DNA from: Bacteroidia bacterium
GTDB lineage: Bacteria > Bacteroidota > Bacteroidia > B-17B0 > Aurantibacillaceae
Assembly: GCA_965229165.1 (NCBI GenBank)
Contig: OZ245863.1
Location: 1,750,387 to 1,814,386 of the forward strand
Length of the DNA: 64,000 nt
Reading direction: 5' to 3'
The notes beneath the pieces are model-generated. The model had not been told where the DNA came from. It saw nothing but the letters and a program-made list of their open reading frames with translations, and ran no database searches. The translations under genes and the position numbers were made by a program. Below, piece by piece: positions 49,368-57,915 of the stretch (position 1 is the stretch's first letter; each line of letters starts with the position of its first letter).

Positions 49368-49426
49368 ATTTGTGCGAAATTTATGCCCATTGAAGCAACA
49401 TTAGTATTTAAAAAGTAGTTCCAACT

Positions 49427-49457
49427 TTTGATAATTTATAAAAAATGGCTAAATTTG
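49427..49457 (+). promoter_or_regulatory. Candidate array promoter (Pc-like)
   Basis: TTTG (49427-49430)-N19-TAAATTTG (49450-49457), about 80 bp upstream of the first cassette core site. Confidence 0.65.
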
Positions 49458-49539
49458 GTAATACTCTAAAAAATAGAAAACCTAATCCTATCCTGCAAAA
49501 TTTTCAAAGAATGATTAGAAAAGTTAAGGGTATAAGTAA

Positions 49540-49547
49540 GTTAGCTG
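49540..49547 (+). other. Lone core site GTTAGCTG (candidate attI / left end of cassette 1)
   Basis: GTTAGCTGCAAGC matches the reverse complement of the cassette 1 right end (GCCAGCCGCTAAC) at 10/13; no attC arm upstream of it. Confidence 0.55.
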
Positions 49548-49620
49548 CAAGCATTTGGGACGACCCGAAAACTGAAAATGAATAAACAGAAATATTAACT
49601 TTGACAAAAACAAAAAAAAC

Positions 49621-50031
49621 ATGAAACAGCTTCTACTATTAACTATTATTTGTTTGACCTATGGTTGTGCAACGACAAAAAACAACTCAAAAATTTCATT
49701 TATTTTAAATGGGACTTGGACACCTATTAAACAAGAAATTGGTGGCAAAGAATTACCGCCAGTTGTCTTTCAAACACAAAAATTAATTATTACTGATAGC
49801 ATCTATACTTTAACAGCCGAGAGTGTTGACAAAGGAACATTGAAATACAAAAATGGGAAAATGGATATATACGGTAAAGAAGGTGTAAACTCAGGAAAAC
49901 ATTTTACTGCAATTTACAAAATTGAAAATGAACAATTAACCATTTGTTACAATCTTAAAGGAGACGATTACCCTTCAAATTTTGAAACAAAATCTGCACC
50001 GACTCTTTTCCTTTCTATTTTCAAAAAATAA
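49621..50031 (+). CDS. Cassette 1 gene A: lipoprotein, TIGR03067/lipocalin-like
   Basis: Lipobox TYGC; L.GTW, G...IY.....LTICY...G...P..F. Confidence 0.75.
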   Translation: MKQLLLLTIICLTYGCATTKNNSKISFILNGTWTPIKQEIGGKELPPVVFQTQKLIITDSIYTLTAESVDKGTLKYKNGKMDIYGKEGVNSGKHFTAIYKIENEQLTICYNLKGDDYPSNFETKSAPTLFLSIFKK

Positions 50032-50046
50032 TAATCTTAATAAGCC

Positions 50047-50469
50047 ATGGCGAAAAATAAAACGACAGAAACTACTATAAGCGTTAACGACTTTATTAAC
50101 GCTGTAAAGGACGAAACTAAACGTGAAGACAGTTTTAACCTGGTTGCACTAATAAAAAAGCAAACAGGACTTGAACCTAAAATGTGGGGACCAAGTATTA
50201 TTGGTTTTGGCAGTTATCATTACAAATATGAAAGTGGACACGAAGGCGACAGCCCTCTTGTTGGATTTTCTCCAAGAGCATCTGCAATCACTTTGTATTT
50301 ATCTGGACACTTTGAAAAACGAGAAGAGTTACTTGAAAAACTTGGCAAACACAAGACAGATAAAGGTTGCATTTATGTAAAAAAAATTGAAGACATAAAC
50401 ATAGAGACACTTCAAAAAATGATAACCAACCACATTAAACATATTCAAAAACTTTACCCAGAAAAATGA
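50047..50469 (+). CDS. Cassette 1 gene B: DUF1801 family protein
   Basis: PKMWGPSIIGFGSYHYKYESGHEGD; LGKHK..KGC.Y.KK. Confidence 0.9.
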   Translation: MAKNKTTETTISVNDFINAVKDETKREDSFNLVALIKKQTGLEPKMWGPSIIGFGSYHYKYESGHEGDSPLVGFSPRASAITLYLSGHFEKREELLEKLGKHKTDKGCIYVKKIEDINIETLQKMITNHIKHIQKLYPEK

Positions 50470-50497
50470 CAAATAATTGGACAACAAAATATGCCAG

Positions 50498-50630
50498 CCG
50501 CTAACATCGGTTTGGCAAAAGCAGGGCTGACGTGGTAAATTGAACATTTGTACTTCTAATAAACATTTGTGGTTTATTAAAAATTTGTGCTTCTATTCCC
50601 TGCCTTCGCCAAGCCGAAAACCGTTAGCGG
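50498..50630 (+). repeat. attC-like site 1 (133 bp)
   Basis: CCGCTAAC-A-TCGGTTTGGCAAAAGCAGGG ... CCCTGCCTTCGCCAAGCCGA-AAACC-GTTAGCGG. Confidence 0.85.
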
Positions 50631-50644
50631 TAATTTGTAAACCC

Positions 50645-51037
50645 ATGACAGAAGAAAATCTAAAAATATTAGGCTATAATAAAATTTGGCTGGACAATGA
50701 AATCTTGACTACAGCTCTTTTACAGACGCAGGTAATTGAATTTAGGACGGGCCAAGACACTAATAAAGAACATTATCGTTATAGTACTTTTAAAAATTAT
50801 TTACTGACACAACCTGAATTAACAAATAGAAAAGTTCTGCAACTTTTCGACATTATTAAAATTGACTCGGACATTTCCTTAGCGACTACTATGGGTCTCG
50901 ACATGTTAAAAATAAGACATCTTAATACTGAGCAATTTCAATTTGTGGCGGACAATTTAATACAAATTTTCGGACTCGACATTCAAAAGCATATAGACAG
51001 GGAAACTATGTGGAGACAGGAGAGACTGAAAAAATAA
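50645..51037 (+). CDS. Cassette 2: hypothetical helical protein
   Basis: True start is ATG 50645 (MTEENLKILGY); the ORF-track start at 50540 lies inside attC1. Confidence 0.7.
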   Translation: MTEENLKILGYNKIWLDNEILTTALLQTQVIEFRTGQDTNKEHYRYSTFKNYLLTQPELTNRKVLQLFDIIKIDSDISLATTMGLDMLKIRHLNTEQFQFVADNLIQIFGLDIQKHIDRETMWRQERLKK

Positions 51038-51044
51038 CAAACTA

Positions 51045-51141
51045 CCGCTAACAGCACCTACTGGTAATTTTTTGCGTGTTAACGCTCAAATGTGTAACTT
51101 GACATAGCAAAAAACTGTAAGTAGCCGCAAAACGTTAGCGG
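51045..51141 (+). repeat. attC-like site 2 (97 bp)
   Basis: CCGCTAAC...CTAC...TTTTTTGC...GCAAAAAA...GTAG...GTTAGCGG. Confidence 0.85.
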
Positions 51142-51187
51142 TCATTGTTAGGACAAGACCCGAAAATATCGTACCTTTATAGAATAG

Positions 51188-51583
51188 ATGTTGACATCCG
51201 GTAAAATATTATTTAAGACCAAATTAAATAAATGGTTGCTGACTGCAATAGTTTTTCTTAGTGTTTTTTCTTTTTCTGGTTACTCAGGACAGTCCCAAAC
51301 GCGACAGGCAGCATTAAAGCAGACAGAATTGTTTGTTACCGTTACTTCCAAGACAAATAAGCCAACGATTTCTTATAAAAAAGCTTTAGCCTCATTTTTC
51401 AGCTTATCTAATTCAATATCGTTTGACCCAAATAGCATTTTGCTATTCAACGGGTTGACCAAAATTAAATTTGACAATTTGTCAAAACAAGACTTTATAG
51501 TTTTCTGTTCAGGCCGACACTTTCAAAGCAAAATTATCCCTCAAAGCCAAGACGAGGAATGTCTAATTTCTCACATAGGGTAA
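51188..51583 (+). CDS. Cassette 3 gene A: hypothetical protein with N-terminal hydrophobic segment
   Basis: 131-aa ORF preceded by a TACCTTTA -7-like box. Confidence 0.6.
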   Translation: MLTSGKILFKTKLNKWLLTAIVFLSVFSFSGYSGQSQTRQAALKQTELFVTVTSKTNKPTISYKKALASFFSLSNSISFDPNSILLFNGLTKIKFDNLSKQDFIVFCSGRHFQSKIIPQSQDEECLISHIG

Positions 51584-51661
51584 TTCTATCCTAATCTGAA
51601 TTTCTTACTTATTAATTCATTTTACAGTTGTATTAAACAATTGTAAGCATTCAAAAATATT

Positions 51662-51862
51662 ATGCAAAGCTTCAAAAAAACAATGAGGCTCTTTGGCTTG
51701 GGACTACTTATAGTATTGGCTACTTTAGGAGTTGGAATTGGTGGTGGCGCACCAATATCGCCTAATAAAAAAAGAGAAGACTCTAATGAAATTAAAACTG
51801 AACTTGTTGAAATAAAAGACGACAAAACAAAGTTGACGGAAATTAAGGACGTAAAGCAGTAA
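51662..51862 (+). CDS. Cassette 3 gene B: small membrane/Gly-rich peptide
   Basis: Hydrophobic helix plus GVGIGGGAP and a charged tail; stop 22 nt before attC3. Confidence 0.6.
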   Translation: MQSFKKTMRLFGLGLLIVLATLGVGIGGGAPISPNKKREDSNEIKTELVEIKDDKTKLTEIKDVKQ

Positions 51863-51884
51863 CCTTCTGCTAAAAAACAACGAA

Positions 51885-52072
51885 CCGCTAACAGCACCTA
51901 CCAGTAATTGGCACGGACTCGGTCATCGCAAAGCCAATTATTGCCTGCTTCGCAGACCTTTAATTTGTTTTGGCTTTGCTAACAAACATTTGTATCTTTA
52001 AATAAACATTTGTAGGTATAGACAGTTGAGTGTTCCAAACGCCAACTACTGGTAGCTGCAAAACGTTAGCGG
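51885..52072 (+). repeat. attC-like site 3 (188 bp)
   Basis: CCGCTAAC-AGCAC-CTACCAGTA ... TACTGGTAG-CTGCAAAAC-GTTAGCGG. Confidence 0.85.
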
Positions 52073-52105
52073 TAAGTTCAAAAAGAATCTGAACAATAGA
52101 GCAAT

Positions 52106-53047
52106 ATGATAAACAGACTAATTATTATCTTTTCAATTTTAACACTTACAAAAGAAAAAGGATATGTAATGGGCGGATACGATGTATCTAAAGACGATAA
52201 ATACATTATATTTTCCGCATATTCAAAATCCAAAAATTCTAGCTCTATTTATAGAACTAATATTGACGGCACTAATACTATTTTAATTGTAGAAGCTACT
52301 AATGGTGAATCGTTTTGGAGTCCTAAATATTCCAACGACGGAAAGAAAATTGTATTTACTGGACAGAAAGGAGAAAGAAAAAATCCTTATTCTTTATATA
52401 TTGCGGACTCTAATGGAAACAACAAAGAAAAATTAACAGAAGGTTATGGGATAAATAGCATGTTTTTTTCCAAATATGGAAATAGAATTTTATATCTTAA
52501 GGATTCTAATTTTATAAAACACTTTCCGAATCGTGACGCCATAAGAAATACTACAGACATTTATTCATTCGAAATTGAGAAAAAAATTGAGAAAAAATTG
52601 TCTAATTTAAACGAATCCACAATTTTTCATTTATCTGAAATGGATAGTATTAGACTAATGTTTTTTAGTCCTGTCTTAGACGATTTTAAGCTTGCAGGCT
52701 CTGTAATTTATTCAATAGATAGTTCCAAAGTTATATCTTTAATTATTCCTTCGAATAACCCCAGGGGTACAGCAGATATGTATAGCGCACCTTATTTTTC
52801 AGCTAAGTATAATCAAATGTTGTTATTAGCCCCATACGAATTATATATAATGGATATGGACACAAAAATTGCAAGAATGTTATATCGTGACTCTAAAACA
52901 AATTCTGAGGGCTTAGGGATGATTGACGACTATTGCATGTTTAATAAAAAAAATAAAATTTTATTCCGTAAAAACCGCGAATTCAGTTTTTGCTTAATAA
53001 ATTCAAATGGTAAGGAATTCAATGAAATTCAAGTTATAATGCCTTAA
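52106..53047 (+). CDS. Cassette 4: TolB-like/PD40 propeller protein
   Basis: SPKYSNDGKKIVF and LYIADSNG repeats; N-terminal hydrophobic stretch. Confidence 0.75.
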   Translation: MINRLIIIFSILTLTKEKGYVMGGYDVSKDDKYIIFSAYSKSKNSSSIYRTNIDGTNTILIVEATNGESFWSPKYSNDGKKIVFTGQKGERKNPYSLYIADSNGNNKEKLTEGYGINSMFFSKYGNRILYLKDSNFIKHFPNRDAIRNTTDIYSFEIEKKIEKKLSNLNESTIFHLSEMDSIRLMFFSPVLDDFKLAGSVIYSIDSSKVISLIIPSNNPRGTADMYSAPYFSAKYNQMLLLAPYELYIMDMDTKIARMLYRDSKTNSEGLGMIDDYCMFNKKNKILFRKNREFSFCLINSNGKEFNEIQVIMP

Positions 53048-53094
53048 AGTTTAAAATAATTATTGACAACTAATTCGAAAGACACGAAAACCTA

Positions 53095-53284
53095 CCGCTA
53101 ACACGGGGCAATTGCGTCAGCGGGGTTGACAGGTAGTTTTTTTGCTTTGCTTTTGCCCCTTCGGGACTTTTATTTTCATAAAGCAAAAAAGAAAAAGTTT
53201 TGTATCTTTAATTTTAGTTTTCGGTTGGTAGAAAGTTTAACGGTTCTTTAACCCGCCGAAAGCAAGCCCCGAAACCGTTATAAC
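53095..53284 (+). repeat. attC-like site 4 (190 bp)
   Basis: CCGCTAAC-A-CGGGGC...GCGGGGTT ... AACCCGC...GCCCCG-AAACC-GTTATAAC. Confidence 0.8.
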
Positions 53285-53332
53285 CAATAAGGACGGACAA
53301 TTCCGTTAGGCAAAAAACTTTTCGTTAGACAA

Positions 53333-53938
53333 ATGACTTTCATATTAAAAATAATATTCTCGCTGACAATAGTTTTTCATTTAAACACAGCCTTTGGACA
53401 GACGCTAGATAAAGACAAGAATGTTTTTTATCACATTAGTTATATTGGCGGACCTCCAAACTCAGAGAACCATACCCTTTGTTGGTACACATGGACAGAA
53501 GTTCCGAATACACATTTTATTATTGAACACTTTTGCTGGAACAGGTGGGTAAAGCGCGGTAAAGTAACTGGCAAAGGGCGACCTGGAACAGGAGACTATA
53601 AGGGCAAAGAAGCAGGTAAATTTCAGTACCAATTTGGCATTACTCGACACAGCGGTGAAAACAAGTTTAGAGTATTGCTGATGAATGATTCCAATGTTTG
53701 CCTTGCAGTTTCCAAAGAACTAAACGGAATGCAACCGAGGACACCAAAAGCGACCTATAGCATCGAAAAAAAAGGAAAGGAAATTCTGTTCAGCTATAAG
53801 ACCTATTATGAAATGTACAACGCAAAAGACAGCCTAGTAAAATATGGCTGTGATAAAACTCTAAATTACTTTGACCTTCCCAAGGGTATTTACACATTGT
53901 ATTACGACAGTTCAACAACAACCTTTAAAATTAAGTAA
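53333..53938 (+). CDS. Cassette 5: exported hypothetical protein (beta-rich)
   Basis: Signal peptide; C-terminus loosely resembles a T9SS sorting domain (YEMYN...LPKGIYTLYY). Confidence 0.65.
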   Translation: MTFILKIIFSLTIVFHLNTAFGQTLDKDKNVFYHISYIGGPPNSENHTLCWYTWTEVPNTHFIIEHFCWNRWVKRGKVTGKGRPGTGDYKGKEAGKFQYQFGITRHSGENKFRVLLMNDSNVCLAVSKELNGMQPRTPKATYSIEKKGKEILFSYKTYYEMYNAKDSLVKYGCDKTLNYFDLPKGIYTLYYDSSTTTFKIK

Positions 53939-53991
53939 ATAAAAATATGCGGACACCCAAACAAGACTTAATCTGTGTGCGCCCCTACTAA

Positions 53992-54088
53992 GTGCTAACA
54001 GCACCTACTGGTAATTTTTTGCGTGTTAACGCTCAAATGCATAACTTGGACAAGCAAAAAACTAGGCCTGCTTGCAGGCCGTTATAAG
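53992..54088 (+). repeat. attC-like site 5 (97 bp)
   Basis: 43-nt block identical to attC2; ends GTTATAAG. Confidence 0.8.
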
Positions 54089-54156
54089 TAATAGGGCGGG
54101 ACAGACTTGACAGTTTGAAAAATAAATTGTACATTTAATAATCATTTGCAGACAAC

Positions 54157-54693
54157 ATGAAGATTCTTTTTCAAATACTATTGACAATTACAGTCTTATT
54201 TGTAAGCTGTAAAAAGGACGTCGGTATTGACTCCAAAAATATTGTTCAGGGACAAGTTCAATTCACCATCAATAACGGTGTCACTTTAAAACAATGCCTC
54301 GACGCTTTTAAAGACTTGGGAGTAACGGAATACGACTTGGCAAATTTCTATTACTCAAAGGTAATTCCCAATGACAGTATGAAATATTATTGGAGTCTTT
54401 TAAAGGCTAGACCTTACATTACGGTTTTTAATGTATTCAAAAAAACAGGTGACACACAAACTCGGTTTAATGCCCTTAAGTTTAAAAATCTAACTGACGC
54501 CAACTTTTATGAATGGGACAGCATAGTAAAAAAAGAATCGCTAATTGAAATGCCTGACATCGGTGACGGTAACCGTAGAAATGGTCTTATTTACATAGCG
54601 CCAGGACAGGAAAAAATTTGGATTGAAAGATTGAAAAAGTTATCTATAATTTACAGCGCAGATTACATGCGCGTTTATGAACCGTTTTGTTAA
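54157..54693 (+). CDS. Cassette 6: lipoprotein of unknown function
   Basis: Lipobox FVSC. Confidence 0.7.
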   Translation: MKILFQILLTITVLFVSCKKDVGIDSKNIVQGQVQFTINNGVTLKQCLDAFKDLGVTEYDLANFYYSKVIPNDSMKYYWSLLKARPYITVFNVFKKTGDTQTRFNALKFKNLTDANFYEWDSIVKKESLIEMPDIGDGNRRNGLIYIAPGQEKIWIERLKKLSIIYSADYMRVYEPFC

Positions 54694-54753
54694 TCGCTGA
54701 CAGTATCAATTTATTTGATGCGGACACCGACAAATACTGTGTGCGGCACATAA

Positions 54754-54851
54754 CCTATAACAGCACCTACTTGTAATTTTTTGCGTGTTAACGCTCAAAT
54801 GTGTAACTTGACAAAGCAAAAAGCGGAAGGCTAAGCGCCAAACGTTAAAGC
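54754..54851 (+). repeat. attC-like site 6 (98 bp)
   Basis: 42/43 identical to the attC2/attC5 block; ends GTTAAAGC. Confidence 0.8.
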
Positions 54852-54879: not shown

Positions 54880-55476
54880 ATGAAATACTACTTTATTCTA
54901 TTACTGTTTTTAATATTTCATTTTATGTTTTTTAAATCAAACGCACAAAAAATAAATCCTTCGTGCAATTTTAAAAAATTAAGCAAACTTATTTCTAAGG
55001 TTAGTCCAACGCAGTCAAAAAAAGATTTAGATAAATTATTTGGCGTTGAAGGTATTATGATTGGCGACAGTTCAAAATCAGACACAATTTCAATGCTTTA
55101 TAAATACCAGTTTTGCGACGATAATATGATTCACAGCTATACCGCTGCTTTTATAAAAAACCGGCTTTTATACATTTCAAAAGCCTTTAAAAATGGGCAA
55201 TGCTTTGGTGATGCCGAAAGTTTTCAAAAAAATATAAAAATTAGTTCCACCTATAACGAAGTGAAAGAAATTTTTAAAATAGACGGCGATTTAAAAAGGA
55301 TTTATTGGGATACAATTACCTCAACAGTGACGCAAATGGAATATGAATGGATGTGTTGCGATAACGTAAATTATTATTCTATTATTTTTAAAGACGGGAA
55401 GCTAGCAATATGCAATCGCTTTCCAATGAAGCAAGATTATAGCAGACCATCTAACGGTAAAAAAGGAAACCGGTAA
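54880..55476 (+). CDS. Cassette 7: exported tandem BLIP/DUF3862/SmpA-like domain protein
   Basis: Two repeats of the type IK..STY.EVKEIF..DG...YEW...IIFKDGK. Confidence 0.55.
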   Translation: MKYYFILLLFLIFHFMFFKSNAQKINPSCNFKKLSKLISKVSPTQSKKDLDKLFGVEGIMIGDSSKSDTISMLYKYQFCDDNMIHSYTAAFIKNRLLYISKAFKNGQCFGDAESFQKNIKISSTYNEVKEIFKIDGDLKRIYWDTITSTVTQMEYEWMCCDNVNYYSIIFKDGKLAICNRFPMKQDYSRPSNGKKGNR

Positions 55477-55625: not shown

Positions 55626-56627
55626 TTAAAACAACTCTCCAACCAAACTTTCAAAACTCTTAACGGTTTCTTCTAAGCTCAGCATACTTTTTCCGCCGGC
55701 AGCATTTATGTGTCCGCCACCATTAAAGTAGTTGCGGGCAAAGGTGTTTACATCTATTTTGCCTTTACTTCTAAAACTAATTTTTATGTAACCTTCGGGG
55801 GCTTCGTTAAAAAAAGCACATACTTTTATGCCTTTTATGCCAAACGGATAATTTACTAAACCTTCGGTATCGCCTTTTTGATAATTAAATTTAGATAATT
55901 CTTTGTGTGTAATGGCAAAATAAGCCACCGGTAAATTTGGTACTACCTTCATTTTTTCGCTTAATGCATAGCCTACTAATCTTAAACGACTTTCGCTATA
56001 CGTATCGTAAATAGCACTGTGTATTTCGTTTGGAATAATGCCTGTTTTTAATAATTCGGCAATTACCAAATGTGTTTTTGCAGTTACACTTGGGTATCTA
56101 AAAGATCCGGTATCGGTCATTAAACCTGTATACAAACATGCTGCAATTTTTTTATTAATTAATTTTTTATCGCCTAAGCCAACAATTAAATCAAACACCA
56201 ATTCACAGGTACTGCAAGCTGCCACATCATGAAAATACAATTTAGCATATTGATCAGGTTGCTGATGGTGGTCAATTAATACTTTTGGTGCAGTACTTGT
56301 TTGTAAAAGGTCTCCTAATTTTTCTAAACGTTTAAACGTATTAAAATCTAAAGTAAAAATACAATCGGCACTGTGTATGGCTTTGCTAACTTTTGCTTCG
56401 TTAGTTTCAAATACCAAAACTTTGTTGTTTGCCGGTAACCAATGCAAAAAATCGGGGTAGGGGTTAGGCACTACTACTTTTACGGTTTTACCTAGTTGTG
56501 TTAAGTAGTGGTATAAGCCCAAACTGCTGCCCATGGCGTCGCCATCGGGGCTATAATGTGTTACAATTACTATATTTTTAACGGATTTTAAAAGGGTTTT
56601 AAATTTGGCGAAACTATCTTTTTGCAT
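55626..56627 (-). CDS. nrnA: DHH-family bifunctional oligoribonuclease/pAp phosphatase
   Basis: H.SPDGDA.GS, LDFN, IDHH, TDTGSF, GGGH.NAAG. Confidence 0.93.
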   Translation of the reverse strand: MQKDSFAKFKTLLKSVKNIVIVTHYSPDGDAMGSSLGLYHYLTQLGKTVKVVVPNPYPDFLHWLPANNKVLVFETNEAKVSKAIHSADCIFTLDFNTFKRLEKLGDLLQTSTAPKVLIDHHQQPDQYAKLYFHDVAACSTCELVFDLIVGLGDKKLINKKIAACLYTGLMTDTGSFRYPSVTAKTHLVIAELLKTGIIPNEIHSAIYDTYSESRLRLVGYALSEKMKVVPNLPVAYFAITHKELSKFNYQKGDTEGLVNYPFGIKGIKVCAFFNEAPEGYIKISFRSKGKIDVNTFARNYFNGGGHINAAGGKSMLSLEETVKSFESLVGELF

Positions 56628-57021: not shown

Positions 57022-57915
57022 ATGATTGAAAAGTGCCTTTCAGAATTTACATCTTACCTCACGCTTCAAAAAAGAGTAAGCCCTTTAACGGTGCAAAGCT
57101 ATCAATCAGACCTTAACCAGTTTTTTAAGTTTTTACAATCCGAATTAAACGCAGTTGATTTAACAACCATTACGCATCAGCACGCACGTGGTTTTATTGC
57201 ACATTTAATGGATAATAAAATTAGTCCGCGAAGCGTAAACCGTAAGTTAAGCAGTTTAAAATCGTTTTTTAAATTTCTTTTAAAACAGGGTGAAATACTA
57301 AGTAATCCTATTTCAAAAGTACAAGGACCCAAAGTCGCAAAAAAATTACCTGTTTTTGTTGACGAAAAACAAACGGAATATTTGTTTGATAACTATGTGT
57401 TTACAACCGATTTTGTTGGCATTCGTAATAAATTGATTATTGACATTTTTTACCAAACTGGCATAAGGAGAGCGGAGTTATTAAGCCTAAAAGAAACAAA
57501 TATTGATATTTACAATACTCAATTAAAAGTTTTAGGCAAACGTAATAAAGAACGTATAATTCCATTTGATATTTCGCTAAAACGCAACCTTGAGAACTAT
57601 ATTTCCGTAAAAAGGACTAACAACCTTGTAAACCCTATTTTGTTGGTTAGTGAAAAAGATACTCCTTTAAACACAAATACAATTACTAAAATTGTAAATG
57701 ATGTGTTGAGTGCTGTTACTACAAGTAAAAAGAAAAGTCCCCACATTTTGCGACACACCTTTGCTACCCATTTATTAAATAATGGGGCAGATATTAATGC
57801 CGTAAAAGAACTATTAGGGCACGCCAGTTTACAAGCCACTCAAATTTATACCCACAATACTATCGAAAAATTAAAAAAATCATACAACCAGGCGCATCCG
57901 CGCTCGGGTAATTAA
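57022..57915 (+). CDS. xerC: Tyrosine recombinase XerC
   Basis: R-K-HxxR-H-Y residues (GIRRAEL, GKRNKER, PHILRH, LGH, TQIYTH); no IntI-type insertion; conserved rpsU-xerC-hpf context. Confidence 0.88.
   Translation: MIEKCLSEFTSYLTLQKRVSPLTVQSYQSDLNQFFKFLQSELNAVDLTTITHQHARGFIAHLMDNKISPRSVNRKLSSLKSFFKFLLKQGEILSNPISKVQGPKVAKKLPVFVDEKQTEYLFDNYVFTTDFVGIRNKLIIDIFYQTGIRRAELLSLKETNIDIYNTQLKVLGKRNKERIIPFDISLKRNLENYISVKRTNNLVNPILLVSEKDTPLNTNTITKIVNDVLSAVTTSKKKSPHILRHTFATHLLNNGADINAVKELLGHASLQATQIYTHNTIEKLKKSYNQAHPRSGN

Follow-up and report, generated by a model that had tools for sequence, protein, structure and literature searches.

The region at positions 49375-54850 of the window (the whole 64,000-nucleotide stretch of Bacteroidia DNA analyzed here) is very probably an integron-type gene-cassette array that lacks a recombinase gene of its own. 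In the mechanism we propose, a cassette would begin with the TT of a GTTA box, end at the G of the following box, and carry its own attC-like folded site at its 3' end, with the crossover taking place in the right-hand box, within its invariant GTTA. Because the crossover would fall there, the bases 3' of GTT would come from the downstream cassette, making every integrated site chimeric, and the 5' end of each cassette would pair with the bases immediately preceding its own AAC box. This end pairing would be restored only in the circular form of the cassette; such circles are inferred from the sequence alone. Matching cassette ends had been reported in a first-pass annotation of the letters alone, and that observation is confirmed here. 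The pairing principle itself is textbook integron biology, and the system is a non-canonical variant. Only the ~65-bp remnant of a recombinase gene is left upstream of the six sites (50499-54850), which satisfies the definition of a CALIN, a cluster of 2 or more attC sites without an integrase gene in the surrounding few kb. The features of the array and its head are as follows:

49375 to 49445, plus strand: remnant of a tyrosine recombinase gene (last ~22 codons, ~65 bp), the remainder of the gene being deleted
49427 to 49457, plus strand: predicted Pc-like promoter, TTTG-N19-TAAATTTG, facing into the array; an exact match to the Bacteroidota consensus pattern
49446 to 49540, plus strand: attI-like region, ending in ...GGGTATAAGTAA|G, the junction with the first cassette; the G of the head GTT is at 49540
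49541 to 50623, plus strand: cassette C1, with open reading frames (ORFs) at 49621-50031 (TIGR03067 domain) and 50047-50469 (DUF1801); attC1 at 50499-50629, C of AAC at 50505, G of GTT at 50623
50624 to 51134, plus strand: cassette C2, ORF at 50645-51037; attC2 at 51046-51140, C of AAC at 51052, G of GTT at 51134
51135 to 52065, plus strand: cassette C3, ORFs at 51188-51583 and 51662-51862; attC3 at 51886-52071, C of AAC at 51892, G of GTT at 52065
52066 to 53277, plus strand: cassette C4, ORF at 52106-53047 (beta-propeller-like); attC4 at 53096-53283, C of AAC at 53102, G of GTT at 53277
53278 to 54081, plus strand: cassette C5, ORF at 53333-53938, exception to the pairing rule; attC5 at 53993-54087, C of AAC at 53999, G of GTT at 54081
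54082 to 54844, plus strand: cassette C6, ORF at 54157-54693 (lipoprotein-like); attC6, which folds poorly, at 54755-54850, C of AAC at 54761, G of GTT at 54844

All of the end matches quoted in the first-pass annotation are present in the sequence (14/15 for C2, 13/14 for C4, one indel for C3, 8/10 for C6, and 10/13 for C1). Its claim that the ends of each cassette match holds for most cassettes, but C5, which it had omitted, fails, and C6 is weak. End matching was scored by anchored alignment; with seven 5' ends set against six AAC ends, the window allows 5,040 assignments, of which the cognate one is the single best (sum of 64, versus 45 for the integrated arrangement). Across 2 arrays with 24 cassettes, the cognate 5' end came first among 25 candidates in 21, with mean scores of 12.4 for cognate, 5.9 for integrated, and 5.4 for other ends, and none of 20,000 permutations reached the observed cognate sum. 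The rule was also kept in 7/7 cassettes from 3 other genomes and in 4/5 of the third array. This cognate-end rule is the classical argument for circular integron cassettes cut at G|TT, and here it is intact, with overwhelming statistical support.

The complementarity extends over 14-25 nt, longer than first noted, and is interrupted at positions 10-11 by a 2-nt mismatch that recurs among the cassettes. Because GTTA is invariant and GTTAGCGGT is common to 3 sites, it is mostly positions 10 and beyond that carry the pairing signal in the window. C2 scores 14 with its cognate end versus 11 with the integrated one (rank 1/25) and folds best with its own 5' end, C4 scores 12 versus 4, and for both C3 and C4 the cognate end ranks first in alignment as well as in folding. 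The cognate end of C6 scores 10 (rank 3). That of C5 scores 7, no better than non-cognate ends: its 5' end starts GTTATAAC, and the reverse complement of its AAC end starts GTTAGCAC.

Circularizing the cassettes in silico and folding the resulting sites, a check proposed in the first-pass annotation, bore out the expectation that folding improves on reconstitution, relative to integrated or mismatched junctions. In 20 of 23 sites, the cognate end gave the most favorable energy among 25 candidates, and the mean fold energy was −36.8 kcal/mol for circularized versus −29.6 kcal/mol for integrated sites, or ~7 better (Wilcoxon p = 3e-5). At attC5 and attC6, the cognate end ranked only 18/25 and 19/25. 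The bottom strand folded better than the top strand in 25/36 sites (p = 7e-4); by analogy with integrons, the folded bottom strand may be the substrate of recombination.

The sites themselves are imperfect palindromes of 82-215 nt, one at the 3' end of each cassette, with invariant TAAC and GTTA boxes. Compensatory changes were found in 17 of 18 stem pairs (18 sites from 6 genomes), so that, as expected of attC sites, AAC/GTT palindromes are conserved in structure rather than in sequence. Canonical attC sites have a 7-bp R box, a roughly symmetric unpaired central spacer, and extrahelical bases on the AAC-side arm, and the array sites do not meet this geometry. Their spacer has 1 nt on one side and about 5 nt on the other, with the surplus on the GTT-side arm, where the extra unpaired bases form a bulge of ~4-5 nt (AAAC or AAAAC). 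The L stem has 1x1 mismatches in place of bulges, and pairing runs on outside the R box. In Rfam, no family was found for the sites, only 2 chance-level matches.

The enzyme inferred to act on these sites in trans is encoded elsewhere in the same genome:

Genome positions 1529910 to 1531076: 388-aa Xer/IntI-like tyrosine recombinase, beside a large array that lies downstream of it

This intact member of the family lies 270 kb from the window array. The 388-aa protein is the best match in the genome to the integron integrase model TIGR02249, at 197.5 bits against a cut-off of 265. Model positions 180-237 are unmatched, facing only ~17 residues of the protein. What is missing is the ~35-residue IntI insertion near patch III, which is regarded as essential for attC recombination; the protein thus does not qualify as an IntI-type integrase. 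Its predicted structure has a short hairpin and no helix at residues 295-311, and in a comparison with the PDB, XerA came top by sequence and was level with IntI4 by fold. The array-associated family carries an extra N-terminal domain of ~76 residues, for which no Pfam match (E up to 10) and no significant PDB fold match was found; there were only hints of HARP (E = 0.3) and of the XPB damage-recognition domain (E about 0.9).

Alternatively, a canonical IntI, present in the past of the lineage or in a donor, could have built the cassettes, leaving the Xer-like recombinase as a bystander. The AAC...GTT boxes and chimeric junctions do resemble those of classical integrons, and the 388-aa protein falls short of the IntI cut-off. 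We consider this unlikely, however. No protein of the complete genome reaches the TIGR02249 cut-off. Among the 9 loci from diverse Bacteroidota that are informative (1.5 kb or more of DNA available downstream), 8 have the Xer-like family directly 5' of co-oriented sites, and no sites lie on the upstream side or on the opposite strand. Within the genus, the family occurs in 60 of 76 genomes and the sites in 69, and the geometry of the sites departs from that of canonical attC. Finally, a cassette copy that is 100% identical implies recent activity in this genome.

The recombinase family was also found in about 20 other Bacteroidota assemblies, and the arrays behind homologs in other Bacteroidota follow the same cognate-end rule. 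We lean towards, without being sure of, a broader reading: a working integron analogue present in many Bacteroidota, with attC-like hairpins that have an extended outer stem and an Xer-like recombinase that lacks the IntI insertion, serves several arrays in trans, and perhaps reads branched or folded DNA through its conserved N-terminal beta-beta-alpha domain. In the literature searched, arrays of this kind whose recombinase lacks the IntI insertion are not described. Structure-specific cassette recombination may do without this supposedly essential element, which bears on the evolution of integron integrases from Xer recombinases. Integron surveys that require the IntI domain would overlook a system that most genomes of the genus possess. 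The host phylum has been reported as nearly free of integrons. The host of the array was termed Flavobacteriales in the analysis.

Among known systems, the array most resembles the sedentary chromosomal integrons, such as the Vibrio cholerae superintegron with its VCR-type attC sites. Shared features are short, co-oriented, mostly single-ORF cassettes of unknown function, an AAC...GTT imperfect palindrome after each cassette, near-identical site subfamilies per host, an inferred attI-like site with a predicted promoter at the head, and the occurrence of CALIN arrays. Integrated sites are likewise chimeric, a stated principle for attC (PMC4889954). Unlike in chromosomal integrons, the array recombinase has the N-terminal domain in place of the IntI-specific one, its gene and the cassettes share one orientation, the stem continues 5-15 bp beyond the R box and contains a conserved 2-nt mismatch, and the extra bases are on the GTT-side arm. 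Transcription of recombinase gene and cassettes in one direction is shared with integrons of the Treponema denticola type. Treponema denticola-type integrases are co-oriented with their arrays and carry the IntI-specific domain. Against our explanation stand the C5 exception, the poor folds of attC5 and attC6, the absence of the IntI insertion, and the non-canonical geometry.

To map the sites across the genome, a duplex-energy scan and a covariance model (R1) were used, as a scan for AAC/GTT pairs with complementary arms was too noisy. The genome carries 2 further arrays like that of the window. All 12 matches of the covariance model in the whole genome fall within these 3 arrays and on the plus strand. 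Model scores in the window array were 110 bits for attC1, 35 bits for attC2, and 48.6 bits for attC3. BLAST likewise placed most copies in the 3 arrays, along with 3 isolated, decayed copies.

These results bear on whether the sites are merely REP/MITE-like palindromes or terminators, spread or duplicated together with genes, with the end matches a by-product of the repeats. As in REP/BIME or MITE elements, the sites are intergenic imperfect palindromes with common cores: they sit after ORFs, and 3 of them have a near-identical 60-nt core in common. The covariation is equally compatible with an RNA structure. Even so, this reading is very hard to sustain. REP/MITE elements would be expected as many dispersed copies in either orientation, and the sites are not dispersed in this way, because the model matches sit in 3 co-oriented arrays on one strand. 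The bases that match are cassette-specific and fall beyond the repeat, and what they match is the far end of their own cassette rather than the other end of the hairpin (12.4 versus 5.9). The better-folding strand is the one that is not transcribed. Neither the cognate-end rule nor an exact cassette duplication would be expected of such elements. The inference in the first-pass annotation that site-specific insertion is favored over REP/MITE dispersal is upheld by the folding gain, by sites that are confined to arrays and to one strand, and by a duplicated copy of C1.

This copy was found when the same cassette was sought beside other neighbors, as the first-pass annotation had also suggested. 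Window positions 49540-50628 are 100% identical to genome positions 1554475-1555563 (1,089 bp), inside the large array and 245 kb away, with the identity running from the G of GTTAGC to the C of the next GTTAGC. C1 is inferred to have been copied from the middle of the large array into the attI-like site that heads the window array. An identical copy at the attI-like head of an array without its own integrase gene is evidence of recent activity, and gives a concrete instance in which trans-acting insertion at an orphan attI-like site can be tested. The copy fits site-specific movement, and fits neither REP/MITE dispersal, being delimited by GTTAGC, nor units bounded by inverted repeats.

The latter would be small transposons with terminal inverted repeats (GTTA... 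and ...TAAC), moved by a transposase, with the hairpin cores as spacers between them. The ends of each unit do literally form an inverted repeat of 14-25 nt. The C1 duplicate, however, passes the AAC end at 50505 and takes in the whole hairpin, up to the GTTAGC at 50628, and because it extends to this next GTTAGC, the mobile unit includes the hairpin site. Neither a target-site duplication nor a transposase gene was seen in the array, and the attI-like junction is kept between genomes, leaving very little room for this explanation. For the cassette reading that we prefer, the 21/24 pairing rule, the bounds of C1, and the attI junctions place the crossover in the GTT box, with chimeric sites and cassettes that begin at TT. 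The data confine it to the invariant GTTA without resolving a position within it, and a cut exactly at G|TT is not proven.

The head of the array provides a second view of this junction. At the DNA level, the recombinase gene remnant is 74-81% identical to the 3' ends that intact recombinase genes have in 2 genomes of the same genus (G018 and G014), where the intact gene is followed by the same attI-like region as in the window. A region of ~100 bp is conserved 3' of the recombinase gene in these genomes and of its remnant in the window, with TTTG-N19-TAAATTTG at the equivalent place in each; its attI and promoter functions are inferred, and the promoter motif is not found above chance across the window. 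The attI-like region is kept up to exactly the junction point in both relatives, with different cassettes beyond, and the junctions of the 3 genomes diverge after GTTA. The head of the large array ends in a similar 13-mer, GGGTATAAGCTA|G.

The idea that housekeeping XerC/XerD moves modules like those of the Acinetobacter pdif system, in which discrete gene modules are bounded by recombination sites of an Xer-family enzyme, draws on the Xer-like nature of the array recombinase and on an XerC-like gene 2 kb downstream of the array (57022-57915), but is scarcely credible: pdif sites are 28-bp, double-stranded, dif-like, and of alternating orientation, no such dif-like arrangement was seen on reading the junctions, the array sites are long, folded hairpins of conserved structure, all in one orientation and chimeric after crossover, and the array family is set apart by its N-terminal domain and its linkage to arrays across genomes. 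The XerC-like gene was also rejected as the array enzyme, as it scores as an ordinary XerC (TIGR02224, 307 bits).

No empty site for the window array was found in relatives; in 5 close relatives, nothing matches the DNA of the EamA gene or of the 5 kb on its left, and of the flanks, only the right-flank gene is conserved. Homologs of the C6 ORF with 77-84% identity occur in 5 genomes of the genus beside different neighbors, and gave no clean breakpoints, being too diverged or beside decayed sites. Site attC4 is 87-96% identical to 4 other full-length copies in the genome and 79-82% identical to 2 more. In the exceptional attC5, the left arm is of the common type, and the right arm matches a different variant that is present in G014.

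Six co-oriented units occupy window 49540-54850, each with one or two short ORFs and, 3' of these, an imperfect palindrome starting with ...TAAC and finishing with GTTA.... The units are referred to as cassettes C1-C6, and the hairpin sites at their 3' ends as attC1-attC6.

Features of the window array and of the local hairpins 5' of the AAC box
49427-49457: promoter-like box
49540: head of the array, a lone GTTAGC
50505 (C of AAC) and 50623 (G of GTT): attC1
51052 (C of AAC) and 51134 (G of GTT): attC2
51892 (C of AAC) and 52065 (G of GTT): attC3
53102 (C of AAC) and 53277 (G of GTT): attC4
53999 (C of AAC) and 54081 (G of GTT): attC5
54761 (C of AAC) and 54844 (G of GTT): attC6
53941-53999 and 54718-54761: local hairpin GCGGACAC-N17-20-GTGTGCCGC
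Genome 1533090-1533139 and 1548188-1548239: the same local hairpin, in the large array

The proteins encoded by the window cassettes are mostly unknown, with a DUF1801, a TIGR03067 domain, and a beta-propeller fragment among them, and several carry signal or lipoprotein leaders. The attC sequences are common to 57 of 75 genomes of the genus, while most of the window ORFs are not. When the sites were searched with BLAST across all 3.75 Mb of the genome, two further arrays came up, a far larger one at 1.532-1.561 Mb and another (the third array) at 446-453 kb, besides three isolated decayed copies.

The first-pass annotation had proposed that the two ends of each cassette match each other, as if the units had once been circular, and all end matches it quoted were found in the sequence. 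Pairing was scored by aligning the 28 nt from each GTT, anchored at the GTT, to the reverse complement of the 28 nt ending at AAC. AAC ends were paired either with the 5' end of their own cassette (cognate) or with the other end of the same attC as found (integrated). Within the window alone, the scores summed to 64 for the cognate and 45 for the integrated assignment, and the cognate assignment was the single best among all 5040. The rule does not extend to every cassette, however: C5, which the annotation had left out, breaks it (5' end GTTATAAC, reverse complement of the AAC end GTTAGCAC), and the ends of C6 pair only weakly. In the large array and the window array together (24 cassettes), the cognate 5' end ranked top of 25 candidates in 21, with mean scores of 12.4 for cognate, 5.9 for integrated, and 5.4 for other pairs, and none of 20000 permutations reached the observed cognate sum. 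The complementarity is 14-25 nt long, far past the 7-bp box, with a 2-nt mismatch recurring at positions 10-11. The third array keeps the rule in 4 of its 5 cassettes, and three other Bacteroidota assemblies do so in 7 of 7.

At 12-22 nt past GTT, almost every cassette has GGCGGACA or GGACGAC, and many cassettes have the small local hairpin directly 5' of the AAC box. The GTGTGCCGC arm of this hairpin could pair locally or, once the cassette is circular, with the cassette's 5' end.

The expectation that sites pair better in circularised than in integrated form was borne out by folding. Every site was combined in turn with 25 candidate right-hand flanks and folded as bottom strand with DNA parameters. 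Of 23 sites, 20 were most stable with the cognate flank; the mean energy was -36.8 kcal/mol for cognate versus -29.6 kcal/mol for integrated sites (Wilcoxon p = 3e-5). In the window, the cognate flank ranked first of 25 for attC1-attC4, 18th for attC5, and 19th for attC6. Of 36 sites, 25 have a bottom strand that folds more stably than the top one (mean 1.6 kcal/mol, p = 7e-4), which mildly favors a role in single-stranded DNA over one in RNA.

The two low-ranking sites depart from the pattern in their arms as well. In attC5, the left arm is of the common type and the right arm is that of another variant, one seen in the same-genus genome G014; the arms of attC6 are likewise unmatched. Such sites would arise, we infer, if homologous recombination took place inside the near-identical 60-nt core shared by this site subfamily. 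This leaves the mismatch between the 5' and AAC ends of C5 unaccounted for.

When 18 sites of ~120 nt, drawn from six genomes, were aligned, TAAC and GTTA proved invariant, and an 18-pair stem with compensatory changes in 17 pairs emerged. The covariance model built on this alignment matched 12 times in the genome, always on the + strand and within the three arrays, which upholds the earlier preference for site-specific insertion over REP/MITE dispersal; the sites are best regarded as candidates for structured recombination sites rather than dispersed repeats. The R stem measures 9-10 bp and, past the 2-nt mismatch, resumes outward; beside GTT, ~4-5 nt (AAAC or AAAAC) are unpaired and face just one A in the opposite arm, and the L stem contains mismatches, not bulges. 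All three arrays lie on the + strand. By cumulative GC skew, the two at 1.53-1.80 Mb belong to the replichore whose leading strand this is, and the one at 0.45 Mb lies near the skew minimum, where the assignment is ambiguous. In the long sites attC1, attC3, and attC4, the loops (window 50540-50600, 51975-52020, and 53195-53225) contain repeated AACATTTGT / GTATCTTTAA boxes, which resemble Bacteroidota -7 elements, but whose TTTG spacing of ~16-20 nt fits the consensus poorly.

C1 (window 49540-50628; 1089 bp, two ORFs and the hairpin) recurs with 100% identity, and with different neighbors, in the middle of the large array (genome 1554475-1555563). The identical stretch starts with the G of one GTTAGC and finishes with the C of the following one, and its flanks are unrelated on either side. 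The copy is treated as real without a check against reads, because the assembly is a single contig and the flanks are unique on both sides. A transposon bounded by the inverted repeats is excluded, as the copied unit takes in the whole hairpin. Homologous recombination has only six shared bases to act on, too few to be the source of the copy. C1 is first in the window array, adjoining its head; integrons insert new cassettes at the head of the array. No empty site could be defined for the window array among the relatives' genomes compared.

Upstream of C1, window 49375-49539 is homologous to multi-copy sequences of genomes of the genus, and the homology stops exactly at 49539 in G018 and G014, which have an intact recombinase gene. 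Their counterpart comprises the last ~65 bp of that gene and a ~100-bp region, which carries TTTG-N19-TAAATTTG and ends in ...GTATAAGTAA (G018) or ...GTTATAAGGAA (G014) directly before GTTA, with different cassettes next. From this counterpart, we infer that the window array is an integrase-deleted platform, retaining the promoter-like box and an attI-like site of putative function. As the attI-like junctions of the three genomes diverge only past GTTA, they and the C1 boundaries confine the crossover to GTTA. This fits the cut between G and TT put forward in the first-pass annotation, but that exact position is unproven. A 46-codon ORF (window 49446-49586, +) begins in the attI-like region, crosses the junction at 49540, and enters C1.

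No protein of the genome reached the integron-integrase cut-off. The best match was a 388-aa tyrosine recombinase (genome 1529910-1531076; TIGR02249, 197.5 bits, cut-off 265), encoded directly upstream of and co-oriented with the large array, with a BRO-N gene in between. Opposite TIGR02249 positions 180-237, where the IntI-specific insertion is located, it has only ~17 residues, and no helix is present at residues 295-311 of its structure model (pLDDT 81). By sequence, archaeal XerA is closest and IntI4 next; by fold, the two are level. Its conserved N-terminal domain of ~76 residues (F23, W41, and S42 invariant) matched nothing in Pfam and no PDB fold significantly, with only weak hints of HARP and the XPB damage-recognition domain. 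Homologs with 50-85% identity occur in ~20 Bacteroidota assemblies. Among the nine loci with enough downstream DNA, eight have co-oriented sites 3' of the recombinase gene, and none has sites upstream or on the other strand. Within the genus, the recombinase was found in 60 of 76 genomes and sites in 69, with up to at least 44 sites per genome. The proposed link between recombinase and arrays rests on this conserved adjacency only, without experimental data. A 297-aa XerC-like recombinase is encoded 2 kb downstream of the window array (57022-57915, +; TIGR02224, 307 bits, just below the cut-off), and was rejected as the array enzyme, as it looks like a housekeeping Xer.

That attC sites are chimeric and that the two ends of a cassette are cognate is already established for integrons (PMC4889954). 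Unlike integrons, the Bacteroidota arrays have a recombinase that lacks the defining insertion and has an added N-terminal domain, a recombinase gene co-oriented with the cassettes, sites whose geometry differs from canonical attC, and a different host phylum. For Bacteroidetes, the IntegronFinder 2.0 survey reported a single complete integron (Salinibacter) and otherwise In0 elements only, and a survey of tyrosine recombinases described the insertion as "not fully conserved" in an integron-like subgroup, with nothing further (PMC8138268). Our literature search found no description of such arrays with a recombinase lacking the IntI insertion. The whole case is computational and has no experimental support.

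Two further regions were observed at the arrays. A 198-aa ORF with a signal-peptide-like start (window 54880-55476, +) lies 3' of attC6 without a hairpin of its own; it shows no DNA-level conservation among 30 relatives, and the next gene (55626-56627, -) is present in all 18 same-genus genomes among them. The ORF may be a final cassette minus its site. In the large array, a 10.5-kb part (L009; genome 1534463-1544988) has cassette ends matching at 14 of 15 positions. It holds genes for 1046 aa and 229 aa on the opposite strand, plus several + strand genes without hairpins, and represents either a single giant cassette or one that has taken up insertions.
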